This document shows positions 42,001 to 54,000 of a stretch of DNA of 64,000 nucleotides, one piece after another (positions within the stretch are counted from its first letter, which is position 1; each line of letters starts with the position of its first letter). The stretch spans positions 1-64,000 of the forward strand of contig JBLNDL010000033.1 of the NCBI GenBank assembly GCA_050261575.1, read 5' to 3'. Position numbers: made by a program. Origin of the DNA: Sphingomonadaceae bacterium. Its GTDB lineage: Bacteria > Chloroflexota > UBA6077.

Positions 42001-45000
42001 GGCAGCGACGCCGATACAGGACTGCTGGAGGCGATGGCTCGGGCTGGGCGGGGTCGCTACCACTTCACGGCCGACCCGGCGGACATCCCGCAGATCTTCA
42101 TGCGCGAGACCCTGATGGCCACCCGCACGCTGCTGGTCAACAGGCGCTTCTACCCTGCCGCCGCGTCGGAGGGTCCGTTGCTGAGGGGCGTGCAGGTGGT
42201 GCCCCCCCTGGACGGCTACGTGGCCGTGACGGCCAAGGAGCAGGCCGAGGTGGTGCTGGTCTCGCCGGAGGGCGATCCGGTGCTGGCCACCTGGCAGTAC
42301 GGGCTCGGTCGGGCCGCCGCCTGGACTCCGGACGTGGCCGGCCGCTGGAGCGGCGCGTGGGCGGGGATCCCCACCACCACCATCCTCTGGGGCAACCTGC
42401 TCTCCTGGCTGCTGCCACCCCAGGAGGCCGGGGAGCTGTCGGTTCGGGTCGATGCCGAGGGGGACACGGGCTTCGAGGTGGTGGCGGAGAACCGCGGGGG
42501 ATGGGAGGAGCTTCGATCGACCCGCGCTACGCTGCTGGGTCCCGATGGACGGCGGCGGGAGATGGAGCTTTCTCCTGCGGGGCCGGGCCGCTACAGGGCG
42601 CGAGGGGAGATGCCCGAGCCGGGGGCGTACGTGGTGCAGGTGAGCCAGACCGTCGATGGCGGCGAGTTGCGTGGCGAGGCAGGGTGGGTGGCGCCATACC
42701 CCGCAGAGTACCGCGAGGTGGGGGTGGACCACGCCTTCCTGAGGCAGTTGGCGGCCGCGGGTGGGGGCGAGCTGCTGGGTAAGCCGGAGGAGGCCGCGGA
42801 GCCGCGTGGCCGTACGGCCGTCTCGCGCTGGCCCGGCTGGCCGTTCCTGATAGCGCTGGCTGCCATCCTCTGGCCCCTGGAGATCGCTGCCCGCCGCCTG
42901 GTGGTGCCGGCGGTGGCGCGGGGACGCGGGGAGGCGGGAACAGGCACACTCCCTCTCCCTCTGGGAGAGGGCCAAGGTGAGGGAAAGGACGCTGGGGACC
43001 GCAGATCCCCTCTCCCACTCCGAGAGGGTGAGGGTAAGGGCCGAGGGTCTGCGCCCGCCCTGGACACGGCGGGGCGGCTGCTGGAGCGCAAGCGCGCCCT
43101 GCGGGAGGGGCGGAGGGAGAAGGGTTAGACGGGGCGCAGACACCTGGTGTCACGGTCGAGCAAACCCGCCAACTGCCGGGCGGCCTCGTCCGGATCCGTT
43201 CCCGTTTGCAGTCGGTAGCAGTCGCAGGATGCCGCCGTGTCCATCATCGTTTCGAAGTGATCCGTCGCCAGGCCGCGGTTCGCGGGCGGCATGCTGTGCT
43301 CCAGCAGGGCGAGGAACGCCTCGGACTTCCCCATCGGCTGGAGGAGGCTGGTGGGGGTTCGTGCGATGCTCGGGAACACCAGCAGTCGGGGCCGGGCCTG
43401 CTCGGCGAGACAGCCGGGGAAGAGGGCGTCGGCGGGGAATGAGTACTTGTTCCTCTCGTTGGGGGCGTGCCCTGCCAGGAATGCCAGCTCCCGGAAGAAG
43501 CCCAAACCATCGGCGCAGACGTTGATGTCCTCGGGGAAGGCCAGCACCTGAACCCCTCCCTCACGCTTCGTGAGAAGGGGCATGTCGTCGGAGAGGAGCC
43601 GCAGGCCGGCCCGCAGTAGGGCTATCGAGAGGGTGGACTTGCCGCTGCCGGGCAGGGCAGGCAGTATCAGGGCGTGTCCGTTCGACTCCAGGGCCGCGCC
43701 GTGGATGGGATACAGCCCTCGCAGACGGAGGAACTCCAGTACCATCGGCAGGATGGCGAAGTGCTGGATCGACCACAGCGCACCCGCGCGCTCGCGGACC
43801 ACGTACACCGCCATCCGACGGGCGTGGAAGTCGGCAACGCTGAGGGAGAGCCCGCGAGCCTCCAGGAAGAGCCGGCCGTCCAGGGCGCTGTGGCGAAGCC
43901 CGCCCTGCTCGTTCACCACGGTCGCATCGGGCGGCACGATCAGCGGGAGCGACTCGACCACTTCCATCTGGCAGTTCAGTGTCTCCCGCTTGGGCGCCCC
44001 CGGAGCCGCCTCGGCATACCGGTGGAACAGCCCGTCCATCGCCTCGGCCAGGTGAGGGTGGTTCGCCCATGCCTCGATCCGCAGCCCGTGCACGCAGTAC
44101 GTCAGACCCTCCAGTGTCGTGACCCTGGCCGATCGCATCCCCTCGTTCCTCCCGCGGAGTGTTCACGGATGGCGAGAGCCGATCGCACGGACGGCCGGCC
44201 GGTGGACGGCCCGACCCGTGCTGCCCTCGCCCATCGCTCTGGATCGATAGAATTCGGCCGGGGGTTACCCCCGGCCGGTGGCGGACCCGCTAGTAGTGGT
44301 TGATCGAGTCGTAGTCGTTGAACAGGGCCGTCAGGCCGCTGGGCTTCCCGAGGGACATCGGTCGGAGCGATACGTATCTCTTCATGTCGCATCCTCTTTC
44401 TCTGGCGCAGCGAGTCCGCCGGGCAGCCGGTCGGGCAGCCCGACGGCCTCGCCTTCGCTAGCCCCGACGACTGTCTACCAACCACCGTTGTAGGGGATGG
44501 TGGCCGTCAAGCCGCTCAACTTGCCCAGCAGCGCGAGGCGCGGCGATACGTAGCTCCTCTTCACGAATCTCACCTCCTTTCTCGTCCCTATGCTTGGATA
44601 GCCGAGGGCGCCCGTCTCCAAAGTGGAGAGGGTCGCGGAGCGTGGATCCGCACCGGCGGTTCGCGCCTCCGAGTTGGGGGACACCACGTTGGAGTGCATC
44701 GTGTCTCCCCTCGCAACCCCCTCGGCCATGGTCCGACCCTCGCCGCCAAGGGGCCGGCTCGGCCGTCCGGATCGGCTCTCGACAGCGGGTACAACCGGTA
44801 GGGGTGGCTGCCCAGCGTACCGACCCGCCGGTTGCCGCGCCACTCTAGCTGGGGCCGATGAATCCAGCATTAATCGGCCGAGCGGTATTGTGTCAACCGT
44901 GTAAGCACTCACCACGCGCCGATTTCATCTCCCGTTCAATTCCCTGGACTAGTCTGGAGCCGTGAAGAAGGCGATCGAAGTCAGAGACCTGTCCAAGAGC

Positions 45001-51000: not shown

Positions 51001-54000
51001 TCACGAAGTGAAGGGCGGCGTTTAGCCCCACGAGCAGTCCGACGATCCGCAGCGTGAGCCCGAGGTCTGCCCGAGCGACCGCTCTCACCTCTCCGATCAT
51101 TGCCAACCGACTAGACGACCAGTCCCTGCTCTCGCAGCTCGTGGAGCAGCGCCACGACGTCCTGCTCCACCTGTTCGGCAGGGGCGTCGTACTCCTCGGC
51201 GATCCTGGAGGCGATCTCCCCGGCGGTGGCCTGGCCGTCGATCAGTTCCCAGATACGGGTGCCCACCTCGTTCAGGGAGTAGTAGTTCTCGCTCTTCGCG
51301 CTCAGCAGCACCGTCTCCTCGCCCATCTTTCGCCAGACCACGTCGGAGGCTCTGGATGGGACGACGTCTGTACCCTGCATCAAGGCTACCCCTCCTCGGA
51401 GAAGGTCGGTAGTTGCGCCGTCGCCCACAGGCTAGCAGGGAGGGGGAGGCGGAGCATGAACATTCGAGGGGATGGGCGTGGGGCCGGGGTTTCGTTTCTG
51501 TAATCCGGGCGCGCCGTCTAAGAAGTAGGGCGGGGGACACGTGAGGCGAGCGGGCGCAGTGCCGCGTGTCCCCCGCCGGCCCGCCCCACGTGTGAGGGGG
51601 GGGCCGGCCACTGCGGCGGGACGGGAGGGACGTGCCGCTCAGTCCAGCGTGATGCGCAGGATGCGATCGTCCTCTGCGGCCGGGTTCCCCCTTCCGTCCC
51701 GGTTGCTCGTGGTGAAGTAGATCAGCCCATCGGGTCCCTGCGTAACCTCTCGCAGCCGCCCGAAGTCCCCCTCGAACAGCCGCTCCTGGGCCACTACCTG
51801 CCGGGAGTCCGGCCCGCCGAGCACCACTCGATGGAGGTGCCCGCCCCGAAGGGTGGCGAAGAAGAGGCTACCCGTCCACTCGAAGAGGCGGTCGGCGTCG
51901 TAGAAGGTGGCTCCGGCGGGCGCCACTGCGGGGTTGAAGACCAGGATGGGATCGATGAAGCGCGAGTCTCCGGCGGCGCCCTGGACCCCCGGCCACCCGT
52001 AGTTGCCCCCAGCCTGGAGGACGTTCACCTCGTCGTTGCCCGAGGGTCCGTGCTCCGTGCTGAAGAGCTGCCCCGTCCCAGGCTGGAATGCCAGCCCCTG
52101 TGGGTTCCGGTGTCCGAAGGTGAAGACGGGTGACCCCGGGAACGGGTTGTCCTCGGGGATGGTGCCGTCCGGGTTGATCCGCAGCACCTTTCCGGCGACG
52201 GAGCCGATGTCCTGGGCCAGGCTGGAGGCGGCGGCATCCCCCGTTGTCACGTACAGCTTGCCGTCCGGCCCAAACCTCAGCCGCCCGCCGTCGTGTATCG
52301 TGGCGGCCGGTATCCCGTCCAACAGCACTGTCTCGCCGCCCGCCTGGTTGCCCTGTACGGTGAGCCGCGAGAGCCGGTTCGCAAGCTGCCCCGGGCCAGC
52401 CTCGCGAGTGTACATGACGTAGATCTGCCCGTTCTGCGCGAAGTTGGGGTCCAGGGCCAGGCCCATCAAGCCCGATTCCGCGGTGGTCACCGCCGGTAGG
52501 ACGGCGACGGGGTCCGGAAGGAGCTGCCCATCCACGATCACCCGGATCCGCCCCGGCCGCTCGGTGAAGAACAGCCGGCCGTCGGGAGCGAAGGCGAGCG
52601 CCCAGGGGGTGTTCAGCCCGGAGGCCACCACCTCCACCCTCGGCTGGAAGCTCTGTGGAGCCACCGGCTGCTGAGGCTCGAACGCGTTCTGGAGGTCGCT
52701 GCTGGGGAGTTGATCCAGCCGGTTGAGCCCCCGCGGCTGGGTGTTGTTGTACTGCCGGAGGAAGGGGCTTCCGGCGAGCTGAGCCTCCAGATCGGCCGGC
52801 AATCCCGTTCCCGTCAGCACGCCCTTGAACCAGTCGCCCAGTAGCAGACCCTGGGTGAGACCGGTCGTCGCGTCGAAGTGCATGATGCCCCGCTGGAACC
52901 GCTGGTACACGAAGTTGCGGTTGTTGGGATCGAAGGCGGGGCGGCTCGTCGGTGCCCCCCAGATCTCCAGGTTGAGCAGCGGGAGCAGATCGGGGTTGCC
53001 GCCTCCTTGAGGAAAGGCGTCGGCCAGCCCGACTGTCGACTCGAAGGTGCGCATGAAGCCGACGTCGAGCCCCTCGAACTGATCGGGCGCGTTCGCCCGA
53101 GTGAACTCGATAATCGCCCGATCGTAGTCCGGCTGTCCCTCCACGGGGGTGGACTGCACCAGTCCGGCGTCGGGCGCAGGAAACTGGGAGCCGTTGATGG
53201 CCGTCACCGCTAACAGTCCCGGGTCGAGGAGGTTGAGCAGCCTGACTCCCCCGTCGCCGCCCTGCTGCATCACCCCGCGCTGAAAGACCTGGACCGCGAA
53301 ACCCTCCAGGACGAAGCTCCTGGACACGGGAAAGCCGAAGGTTCTGACACCACCCCGGTGGGTGAAGTAGTCGAAGAAGGCGTCGTTGTCGATCCTGAAC
53401 CCCGTTTCCTGGAAGAAGCGGGGGTCCTGGACCTGCTGCTGTGGTGCGGCCCCGCCGGCTGCAGGGGCTGCCGCCATCACCACGAAGAGCGCGATCAGTG
53501 CCGGAATCAGGGGCGGAGGCGGGATTCTGCTCACGGTTCTCCTCTGTTGTGCGAGTGTTGTCGGTTGCGAAGGCATCCCCGCCCCGAGGAGCCGAGCCGT
53601 GACTCCCTACCCGGTGCCTGCAAGAAGCATTCCGAGCCCGGCGCCTGCGTGGGCGTGGGGACACTCGATGGTCGCGGGACAGAGGAGAGAGTGGAGAGGC
53701 ACGAGGCTGGGGGCGCAGCCCCCAGCCTCGTGGAGTGTTATTTCACCAGCACCCGGTGGTACTTCTTCTTGCCCGCCCGGAGGAAGAGGGACCCTTCCAC
53801 CAGGTCGTGGGGGGTAATCACCTGGTCCGCGCTCGCGATGCGGTCGCCGTTGACGTAGGCGCCGCCCTGCTGAATCAACCGCCTTGCCTCGCCACGAGAG
53901 CCGACCAGCCCGACCATGGCGAAGAGTTGAGGAACGGGGATCCCCTCGGCCAACTCCGCCGCCCCGATCTCCGTCGTGGGGGCTCCTTCCAGGGATCCCT

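Follow-up and report, generated by a model that had tools for sequence, protein, structure and literature searches.

Genes and precursors of the locus

The window, a 64,000-nt stretch of contig JBLNDL010000033.1, carries at 43125-51428 genes for an HprK-like kinase, two small precursor peptides, an ABC-2 exporter, an NTP_transf_5 enzyme, a B2 leader peptidase and a B1 leader-recognition protein. A preliminary description had listed these genes, and profile searches located all of them where it had placed them. The host is a soil bacterium, and its 3.72 Mb assembly has 103 contigs and a completeness of 100%. The region 42000-51531 is spanned by a single 14,468-nt contig in an independent assembly of run X2, which may be the source sample; none of the RNA runs searched contains the locus. 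The genes are free of frameshifts and premature stops.

The kinase gene (43125..44138, minus strand) encodes a 337-aa HprK-related P-loop protein that matches TIGR04352 at 86.2 bits (E 2e-24), below the family cut-off of 200 bits, which reproduces exactly the score reported earlier (86 bits). Its Walker A residues (G164-x-G166-K167-S-T169) and the pair D184-D185 are fully or almost fully conserved in an alignment with 32 relatives, and the top fold matches of its AlphaFold model (pLDDT 92.6) are PEP carboxykinases. The PsmN-like NTP_transf_5 enzyme (49402..50724, minus strand, with a start perhaps at ATG 50604; PF14907, 200.5 bits) has a nucleotidyltransferase fold; K129, G130, D148 and D150 are invariant among ten relatives, and the structure model resembles MenT1, TM1012, LnuA and ANT(2'')-Ia. 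The lasso-type B2 peptidase (50597..51106, minus strand) scores 50.3 bits against NF033537 (cut-off 33) and 53.5 bits against Transglut_core3, retains a Cys80 and His115 that are invariant in six relatives, and is encoded by the only gene of its kind in the genome. B1 (51111..51428, minus strand, likely start ATG 51380) is likewise the sole PqqD-family gene; it matches PqqD at 84 bits and lasso_PqqD_Bac at 64 bits, where the cut-off is 80.

The exporter comprises a DrrA-like ATPase (44962..45984, plus strand; ABC_tran 103 bits, TIGR01188 254 bits), transcribed divergently from the precursors, and an ABC-2 type permease (about 45981..46796, plus strand; ABC2_membrane 70 bits) whose start probably overlaps the ATPase stop in a GTGA. 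The pump and two unrelated-looking genes occupy about 5 kb that splits the kinase and precursors from B1, B2 and the NTP_transf_5 gene, unlike the compact locus of close relatives. The first of these genes encodes a secreted DUF6448 protein (47075..47761, minus strand; PF20046, 159.5 bits) and is absent from all related loci examined, although the contigs of close relatives stop before the corresponding position. The second encodes a DUF438-hemerythrin-PAS_10 protein (48036..49325, minus strand; Pfam matches), runs in the same direction as the NTP_transf_5 gene and lies 77 nt 3' of it; none was found among the related loci examined.

The two precursors are paralogues, each preceded by a strong ribosome-binding site. 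A1 (44290..44385, minus strand; 31 aa), with its ATG behind GAAAGAGGA, consists of a 20-residue leader and a predicted 11-residue core, LFNDYDSINHY. A2 (44475..44564, minus strand; 29 aa) ends in a predicted 8-residue core, TIPYNGGW, and its start, formerly in doubt, is now placed at GTG 44564, 6 nt behind AAAGGAGGTG. The lasso leader motif had been claimed for both peptides. It holds for A2 (Y-x2-P-x-L-x3-G-x5-T-x), which ranks first of 81,969 genomic ORF tails (E 0.024) against a leader profile built from other loci only. The same profile missed A1, in which the leader Pro and Leu are displaced and which reads as a degenerate match; A1 may therefore be a poor substrate. Directly 3' of A1 and 5' of the kinase gene, RNA folding predicts a 10-bp G+C hairpin (44255..44277, minus strand; -28 kcal/mol, z -2.84 versus shuffles); since no T-run follows it, a role as attenuator or stabiliser is putative.

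Both cores conform to their first description: they are too short for a lasso, one is devoid of Asp and Glu, and in A1 acidic residues occur only at positions 4 and 6 of 11. Cys is absent from both. So is the C-terminal Ser targeted by known lasso kinases, as summarized in PMC8498205, and its absence counts against the phosphorylation proposed below.

Cyclase searches and distribution of the cassette

No lasso cyclase is encoded in the locus. A search of the whole assembly with PF00733 returned one match of 379 bits, on contig C28, and five others of at most 20 bits. The C28 protein scores 533 bits against the asparagine synthase model TIGR01536 (cut-off 267), whereas with NF033535, the model for lasso cyclases, it reaches no more than 274 of the required 525 bits; it is thus a true AsnB, in agreement with the earlier statement that locus and assembly lack a cyclase and that this is their lone Asn-synthase homologue.

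The same absence extends to relatives. None of the 133 ORFs within 7 kb either side of nine related loci matched Asn_synthase. Among 24 related genomes, PF00733 matches and the kinase are on separate contigs in 21; in the remaining three the distance is 24.6 kb or more. Full-length matches are missing from three genomes of the set: G422 has no match at all, G414 and G417 only matches below 30 bits. Relatives' loci had been feared to sit at contig ends, but 14 loci are flanked by 10 kb on each side, which removes this worry. As a positive control, two of these genomes, G411 and G413, each possess a second, distant kinase gene adjoining B2, cyclase and precursor genes; these cyclases score 130 and 80 bits against PF00733, have NF033535 as their best NCBIfam match, and accompany precursors whose 20-residue cores contain Asp9.

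Of the 24 related genomes, which belong to Actinomycetota, Acidobacteriota, Chloroflexota and Deinococcota, 21 have the kinase, B1 and B2 genes together; the assemblies are MAGs of unknown completeness, many with short contigs. The kinase had been called rare, in 5 of 201 Chloroflexota genomes; it is rare here too, but the count differs: at E<=1e-10 it occurs in 17 of 400 further genomes from the phylum, and at E<=1e-20 in none of 38 others of the order. Three clades separate in the kinase tree: the cyclase-linked kinases (support 99), those of HPr-rel-A loci (97) and, with 28 rows and a support of 94, those linked to B1/B2 but not to a cyclase. The window kinase groups with those of L059 and L061 at 100. 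The cyclase-free arrangement is thus a conserved multi-phylum lineage, not a product of local decay, a genome peculiarity or an assembly gap.

In fourteen further loci, leader-type precursors are encoded next to the kinase gene or no more than 250 nt upstream of B1. Conservation ends directly after Thr-x, and the predicted cores that follow span 3-22 residues. Only one of 21 is lasso-compatible, that is, with Asp/Glu at position 7-9 and a tail of at least 5 residues. In the window's subfamily seven of eight cores lack Asp and Glu, and all eight, A1 included, share one aligned Tyr, a coincidence with a probability of about 2e-5 if Tyr makes up 1.8% of residues, as in the window genome, and of about 2e-4 under an assumed frequency of 2.7-3%. 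Two of the eight lack Ser and Thr, and Tyr is therefore favoured, though unproven, as the modified site. Acidobacteriota-type cores begin with [LFY][ST] in 10 of 13 cases and many also contain Cys; two loci have predicted tripeptide cores (aromatic-Ser/Thr-aromatic).

Gene content varies around this cassette. The pump is missing from most related loci, so export is not a conserved feature. The close relative L059 has an additional radical SAM/SPASM enzyme that the window genome lacks; products may therefore differ within the subfamily. Actinomycetota cassettes contain a DUF2079 membrane protein gene and no precursor in the locus.

A proposed pathway and its alternatives

We consider it probable that the locus encodes a functional RiPP pathway, assembled from lasso-type parts and independent of a cyclase, in which kinase, NTP_transf_5 enzyme, B2 and exporter yield a short, linear, modified peptide. 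The two small genes would supply precursors of 29-31 residues, held by B1 through their leaders of about 20 residues. With the leader still attached, the HprK-like kinase would phosphorylate a hydroxyl-bearing side chain within the core, likely the single invariant Tyr in the window's subfamily and the Ser/Thr at core position 2 in the Acidobacteriota/Deinococcota subfamily. We know of no HprK-like kinase that phosphorylates tyrosine. The NTP_transf_5 enzyme might then build on the phosphate, perhaps with a hexose as for PsmN, or nucleotidylate the peptide directly. B2 would cleave after the Thr-x junction and the divergent pump would export the 8- or 11-residue product, linear and modified; neither a macrolactam nor a threaded structure would form. 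PsmK is reported to phosphorylate a linear precursor and to require its two Asp residues (PMC6993621), and PsmN to be required for placing hexose on the PsmK-made phosphate (PMC6993621; review PMC8498205). Cassette conservation, the kinase tree and the cores all support the earlier reading of a lasso-type RiPP locus without a cyclase and with a non-lasso product. The recurrence of the cyclase-free set in several phyla suggests a type of small modified peptide not described before; searches of the literature turned up no account of such a pathway.

The same cassette could serve other chemistry, with the phosphate as a leaving group or handle and not an end product, which is conceivable but unlikely. 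The phosphate might be eliminated to give a dehydro residue that is then cross-linked, following class III/IV lanthipeptide logic, or a few C-terminal residues might become a small cofactor- or signal-like molecule comparable to PQQ and mycofactocin, whose pathways likewise employ a PqqD-type chaperone. The tripeptide cores, the frequent [LFY][ST] starts and Cys of Acidobacteriota-type cores, the radical SAM/SPASM enzyme of L059 and the scarcity of exporters would fit such products. However, the loci share no conserved lyase, cyclase or oxidase, the window cores lack Cys, and in the single precedent that has been tested for this pair of enzymes, as reported in PMC6993621, the phosphate is kept and a hexose added.

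It is improbable that the locus is a decayed lasso cluster, its cyclase lost and the remaining genes drifting, functionless remnants. The interrupted gene order, the degenerate A1 leader and the lack of the locus in the order's 38 other genomes are compatible with decay, but the reading frames are intact, alignments with relatives show the catalytic residues of kinase, B2 and NTP_transf_5 enzyme to be invariant, and relatives with 54-56% identical kinases retain the same gene set with 2-4 intact precursors. Moreover, the cyclase-free cassette has its own kinase clade across several phyla, and its cores differ systematically from lasso cores.

Very unlikely, too, is a role of the enzymes on a protein or cell-surface polymer, with the small ORFs incidental, a situation that may apply to the HPr-rel-A cassette beside PEP-CTERM genes. 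The best curated family of the kinase is indeed TIGR04352, true HPr-rel-A loci pair kinase and NTP_transf_5 enzyme with no lasso-type leader peptides, and the Actinomycetota cassettes lack a precursor; yet B1 and B2 belong to the machinery that handles leader peptides, leader-type ORFs directly adjoin the B1/B2 cassette in the window and 14 further loci, those of the window have strong ribosome-binding sites, and the Actinomycetota genomes have leader-type precursors at a second kinase locus. A normal lasso pathway whose cyclase is encoded in unassembled DNA or at another genomic site, suggested by the 103 contigs and the lasso-type leader, B1 and B2, is highly improbable given the completeness of 100%, the AsnB identity of the sole homologue, the placement or lack of acidic residues in the cores, and the relatives, of which none (0 of 24) has a cyclase beside the cassette, three lack one in the whole assembly, and those with canonical clusters keep the cyclase adjacent there.

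Comparison with known systems

The SynChlorMet cassette (ScmC HprK-like, ScmD PqqD-like) shares the pairing of an HprK-like with a PqqD-type protein, but the window proteins score far under its cut-offs (TIGR04249 21.8 bits, cut-off 125; TIGR04248 35.9 bits, cut-off 100), and the window has no counterpart of its radical SAM partners, whether radical SAM or SPASM. The HPr-rel-A system of NCBIfam (TIGR04352 kinase A, TIGR04353 PqqD chaperone), known from annotation only, likewise combines an HprK-related kinase with a PqqD-family protein, has an NTP_transf_5 gene next to them and lacks a cyclase. The window proteins miss its cut-offs, the kinase with 86 bits (cut-off 200) and B1 with 26.6 bits (cut-off 35), and in the six true HPr-rel-A loci examined neither B2 nor lasso-type leader peptides were found; a protein of about 225 aa that carries a twin-Arg signal is encoded upstream instead, and their kinases form a separate clade.

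Two canonical kinase-bearing lasso clusters from Acidobacteriota MAGs (L140, L141) share with the window the leader motif, B1/B2, the kinase and the ABC-2 pump, the ATPase being 40% identical to that of L140; they differ in their adjacent cyclase and 20-residue cores with Asp9. The paeninodin (pade) and pseudomycoidin (psm) clusters, as described in the published accounts, likewise share split B1/B2, an ABC exporter, a leader with penultimate Thr, an HprK-like kinase with an essential Asp-Asp pair and an NTP_transf_5-type enzyme (PsmN), and their kinase works on the linear precursor (PMC6993621; PMC8498205). The window has, by contrast, no macrolactam synthetase, and its cores of 8 and 11 residues offer no usable acidic residue or C-terminal Ser. 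The earlier label of a paeninodin/pseudomycoidin set needs qualifying because the window kinase falls outside the clade that cyclase-linked kinases form and B2 shares just 23% identity with its counterpart in a canonical kinase-bearing lasso cluster.

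Gene content of the peptide locus

The ORF listing and family scans of the window bear out the gene inventory of the preliminary description. Two short precursor genes, A2 (44475-44564, minus strand) and A1 (44290-44385, minus strand), each preceded by a strong ribosome-binding site, are followed by a 10-bp G+C hairpin (44255-44277, minus strand; -28 kcal/mol, z -2.84) and by a gene encoding an HprK-related P-loop kinase (43125-44138, minus strand). The start of A2, earlier flagged as uncertain, is now placed at GTG 44564 because of its strong ribosome-binding site, AAAGGAGGTG. 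An ABC-2 exporter pair (44962-45984 and about 45981-46796, plus strand) is divergent from the precursors and kinase. Farther along lie genes for the PqqD-type leader-recognition protein B1 (51111-51428, minus strand; PqqD 84 bits), the lasso-type leader peptidase B2 (50597-51106, minus strand; NF033537 50.3 bits, cut-off 33) and an NTP_transf_5 protein (49402-50724, minus strand; 200 bits). B1 and B2 are each single-copy in this genome, and B1 scores 64 bits against lasso_PqqD_Bac, under the strict cut-off of 80. A 14,468-nt contig from a separate assembly, whose run may be the source sample, spans 42000-51531 without rearrangement.

Several other genes lie within or beside the locus. Those for a DUF438-hemerythrin-PAS_10 protein (48036-49325, minus strand) and a DUF6448 secreted protein (47075-47761, minus strand) stand between NTP_transf_5 and the pump and run in the same direction as B1-B2-NTP_transf_5. 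A convergent gene for a 929-aa VWA-domain protein with a GATase1-like region (40339-43128, plus strand) overlaps the 3' end of the kinase gene by 4 nt; G+C is 72-74% in its region versus 65-69% across the peptide locus. B1 is adjoined by a gene for a 645-aa glucose/sorbosone dehydrogenase (51639-53576, minus strand; GSDH, 316 bits), a family that uses PQQ. A PQQ pathway was therefore considered. The locus has no radical SAM PqqE-like gene; a PqqC search of the genome gave no match but carries no weight, since control genomes were equally silent.

The predicted active sites are conserved. G166, K167, T169 and D184 of the kinase are invariant in 32 sequences, as is D185 in a 19-sequence set, and the kinase model (pLDDT 92.6) resembles PEP carboxykinases over both domains (E about 1e-9, TM 0.5-0.57), whose fold family also includes the catalytic domain of HPr kinase. 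Cys80 and His115 of B2 are invariant. The NTP_transf_5 protein keeps the Lys-Gly and Asp-x-Asp signatures, and its model (pLDDT 78.6) matches the small nucleotidyltransferases MenT1, TM1012, LnuA and ANT(2'')-Ia, the same structures to which PsmN was likened by Zyubko and colleagues. The predicted complex of B1 (9-row alignment) with a precursor (8-row alignment) scored 0.03 against a mark of 0.32, which counts neither for nor against binding.

The preliminary description had found no lasso cyclase in the locus or the assembly, and this holds: a PF00733 search of the whole assembly (103 contigs, completeness 100%) leaves one real match, on contig C28. With 533 bits this protein passes the TIGR01536 asparagine synthase model (cut-off 267); the XrtA/PEP-CTERM amidotransferase model gives 652 bits, and the lasso cyclase model NF033535 only 274 bits (cut-off 525). 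Two genuine lasso cyclases used as controls match NF033535 best, and both fall under the TIGR01536 cut-off. Judged by these family scores, the sole real Asn-synthase match of the genome is AsnB and not a lasso cyclase. The glutamine amidotransferase domain of the C28 enzyme was dropped as proof against a cyclase because the true lasso cyclases of two Acidobacteriota MAG loci, L140 and L141, also match GATase_7; the NCBIfam comparison was used instead.

Loci L140 and L141 belong to two of the Acidobacteriota genomes that also carry a cyclase-free cassette (kinase, B1 and B2, often with NTP_transf_5), and hold a distant kinase homologue elsewhere in those genomes. Both are lasso clusters of the textbook kind, with B2, a cyclase (PF00733 130 and 80 bits) and the kinase, and in L140 also with B1 and an ABC-2 pump; their precursors carry the same leader motif before 20-residue cores with Asp at position 9. 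The methods therefore detect both a cyclase and a lasso-type core where present, and the two kinds of cluster can coexist in one genome.

The cyclase-free cassette in other genomes

The cyclase-free cassette is conserved across genomes beyond the window. A scan of species-representative genomes, with gene co-location determined by tblastn, yielded 24 kinase loci, in genomes labelled Actinomycetes/Thermoleophilia, Acidobacteriota, Chloroflexia, Meiothermus, one 'Patescibacteria group' bin and one Deltaproteobacteria bin. Kinase, B1 and B2 occur together in 21 of the 24, and NTP_transf_5 in at least 14. When PF00733 and the kinase were searched in all 24 genomes, which are MAGs of unknown completeness with several short contigs, 21 had no PF00733 match on the contig that carries the kinase; the remaining three have their nearest match 24.6, 34.8 and 44 kb from the kinase, and it is AsnB-like. 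One genome has no PF00733 match at all, and two others show solely matches below 30 bits. In nine loci, the 133 ORFs lying within 7 kb of the kinase were scanned with Pfam, and none has an Asn_synthase domain. The earlier caveat that the relatives' loci sit at contig ends falls away, because 14 of the 24 have 10 kb of DNA on either side.

The close relatives of the window kinase (54-81% identity) number 13 and are all metagenomic; next come a tier at about 30% and then the HprK-related kinase A family. Among named relatives, the nearest protein (81%) is from a Chloroflexota MAG. The kinase occurs in 17 of 400 other genomes of the phylum (E<=1e-10; best identity 41%) and in none of 38 other genomes of the same order (E<=1e-20). 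Locus DNA is present in soil metagenome runs from several studies, and no RNA run is listed as containing it.

A FastTree phylogeny was built from 71 of 134 collected kinase rows labelled by the genes within 5-6 kb: all rows with B1 and B2, with B1 only or with a cyclase, 18 of 62 with NTP_transf_5 only (taken at random) and 13 of 32 unlabelled, leaving out 63 of the 134. In this tree, which has local support values only, a midpoint root, long branches in the cyclase clade and labels limited by the DNA available per locus, three cyclase-linked kinases and a Paenibacillus protein form one clade (support 99), with the window kinase elsewhere. The 18 kinases with NTP_transf_5 alone beside them, the true HPr-rel-A type, form a separate clade (97). 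The cyclase-free kinases linked to B1/B2 belong to a 28-member group (94) with three well-supported subclades, one of which (100) unites the window kinase with those of two close metagenomic relatives, L059 and L061.

Some cassettes have additional neighbors. In Actinomycetota cassettes (L011:11964-13853, L013:6440-8350, L014:11730-13616), B2 and NTP_transf_5 are separated by a DUF2079 membrane protein, about 630 aa long. The DnaB helicase adjoining a Meiothermus cassette (L030:12617-15241, minus strand) holds an intein with a LAGLIDADG domain. A gamma-glutamyltranspeptidase gene directly upstream of the first precursor in L061 (2-1357, plus strand) could be context only.

Precursors and their predicted cores

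The lasso leader motif reads Y-x2-P-x-L-x3-G-x5-T-x. A2 matches it in full; A1 matches Y, G and T-x, with Pro and Leu displaced. The penultimate Thr of lasso leaders is described in PMC10368454. Precursors were sought with a leader regex and confirmed with a stricter regex and a profile; those of the window and related loci are short ORFs with a basic N-terminus and a lasso-type leader. In nine loci of the Acidobacteriota type (L018-L024, L026, L027) their ends lie no more than 250 nt upstream of B1. The Meiothermus locus L030 has two, flanking the cassette, and L031 one, behind the kinase; L059 has four, L061 two and L065 one. Further scattered matches to a looser regex, outside such gene context, were set aside. 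Conservation stops right after Thr-x, which supports this position as the leader-core boundary. A leader profile built without the window sequences ranked A2 first among 81,969 ORF tails of the window's genome (E 0.024) and missed A1 there.

No precursor was found inside nine Actinomycetota kinase-B1-B2 loci (L009-L017) by regex, leader profile or all-against-all comparison of small ORFs, the last returning solely overlapping frames of real genes. Leader-type peptides do occur at a second kinase locus in two of three Actinomycetota genomes of this type that were examined. There (L142:4236-8482, L143:4974-8584), on a contig other than that of the main cassette, peptides with 16-residue two-Cys cores lie about 1 kb upstream of the second kinase, next to conserved proteins (480-530 aa and about 187 aa) that match no Pfam family; the main cassette of these genomes reads kinase-B1-B2-DUF2079-NTP_transf_5 and has no precursor. 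In L059, the closest metagenomic relative, a radical SAM/SPASM gene (856-1863, plus strand; Cx3Cx2C) stands between the four precursors and the kinase.

The 21 predicted cores range from 3 to 22 residues, and one has Asp/Glu at position 7-9 followed by at least five residues. Of the two window cores, TIPYNGGW has no acidic residue and LFNDYDSINHY has Asp at positions 4 and 6 only. Among cores of the Acidobacteriota/Deinococcota type, 10 of 13 start with Leu/Phe/Tyr followed by Ser/Thr, and three cores at two loci are tripeptides, aromatic-Ser/Thr-Phe. The window's subfamily comprises eight cores (two from the window, four from L059, two from L061); seven lack Asp/Glu and two lack Ser/Thr, and one Tyr, in a single alignment column, is common to all eight. 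With three near-identical L059 cores counted once, the chance of Tyr in all six independent cores is about 2e-5 at 1.8% Tyr, the genome's frequency in long ORFs and probably an underestimate because wrong-frame ORFs are included, and about 2e-4 at 2.7-3%.

A possible pathway and its relation to known systems

According to PMC6993621, PsmK phosphorylates the C-terminal Ser of the pseudomycoidin precursor, with Asp158/Asp159 essential, and PsmN, which needs Asp134/Asp136, is required for the addition of one or two hexoses to that phosphate. The review PMC8498205 states that lasso kinases act on the linear precursor, not the folded lasso, and recognize a C-terminal Ser; in some cases, it adds, the nucleotidyltransferase and B2 are fused. 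From gene content, residue conservation and comparative context, a pathway may be proposed whose chemistry, step order and modification site are putative: B1 would hold the leader, the kinase would phosphorylate a core hydroxyl (Tyr in the window's subfamily), NTP_transf_5 would elaborate the phosphate, B2 would remove the leader and the pump would export the linear peptide. Counting against it, we know of no precedent for Tyr as a substrate of this kinase family; in addition, the A1 leader is degenerate, the window arrangement is split, the pump is missing in most relatives, and the radical SAM/SPASM gene of L059 has no homologue in the window's genome (best match 28.5 bits, on contig C30).

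The system is rated as a RiPP pathway assembled from known parts. That it constitutes a new RiPP class is a tentative reading, somewhat short of probable. Such a class would combine lasso-type leader recognition and cleavage by B1/B2 with a class-defining O-phosphorylation by an HprK/PEPCK-fold kinase, then an NTP_transf_5-dependent elaboration, to a phospho-hexose or a nucleotide, of Tyr or Ser/Thr in a very short linear core, in at least four phyla and with some tripeptide cores. If this is true, the tripeptide-core members would be among the smallest ribosomal natural products, and a tyrosine-directed HprK-like kinase would be seen for the first time in a RiPP, in the window's subfamily. 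Literature coverage that excludes most subscription journals and supplements yielded no account of a kinase/B1/B2/NTP_transf_5 cluster without a cyclase, so an earlier publication is possible. Clusters like this one are discarded because lasso genome-mining rules require a cyclase; in the RRE-Finder paper (PMC7470986), about half (some 4,000) of roughly 8,000 lasso-type discrete RREs lack the pair of peptidase and cyclase and are called possible false positives. An active cassette would mean that a lasso leader peptidase can work in a non-lasso pathway and that the kinase/NTP_transf_5 pair is an independent modification module and not a lasso tailoring accessory. It would also imply that soil and subsurface bacteria make very small phospho-modified peptides of one family, and offer a compact leader-directed tool to phosphorylate or glycophosphorylate short peptides.

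The window shares with lasso clusters the B1 (RRE) protein, the transglutaminase-like cysteine protease B2, the lasso-type leader with penultimate Thr, and the P-loop and Asp-Asp metal site of PadeK/PsmK-type kinases, its Asp pair being likened to PsmK D158/D159 by motif and not by alignment. However, its cores lack the Asp/Glu at position 7-9 and threading tail of a lasso core, and its kinase does not group with the cyclase-linked, PadeK/PsmK-type kinases. Substrates of the latter end in Ser, whereas neither window core and only two of the eight subfamily cores do.

The HPr-rel-A system is the other relative. A search with the kinase brought up 80 metagenome loci, most of them true HPr-rel-A cassettes; in 61 of the 80, NTP_transf_5 directly follows the kinase. 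In six of these true loci the kinase scores 370-408 bits against TIGR04352, the TIGR04353 chaperone is above cut-off in four, and neither B2 nor a lasso-type leader peptide was found. Upstream they encode a protein of about 225 aa (L122:8674-9345, L127:8751-9392, L083:8497-9171, L100:8599-9291, L068:8822-9538, L111:8512-9294) whose N-terminus resembles a twin-Arg signal and which matches neither Pfam nor NCBIfam; PEP-CTERM genes are often nearby. This protein may be a substrate or partner of the HPr-rel-A system; a hidden B2 was rejected, given the lack of a family match, the twin-Arg signal and, in the alignment, the lack of a Cys/His protease motif. By comparison, the window kinase reaches 86.2 bits against TIGR04352, under its cut-off of 200, and B1 26.6 bits against the PqqD chaperone model TIGR04353, under its cut-off of 35. 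NTP_transf_5 lies 5.3 kb from the kinase on the same strand, and in L059 and L061 the two share one compact cassette with B1 and B2 between them. Thus, the window system is a third arrangement, between lasso clusters and HPr-rel-A.
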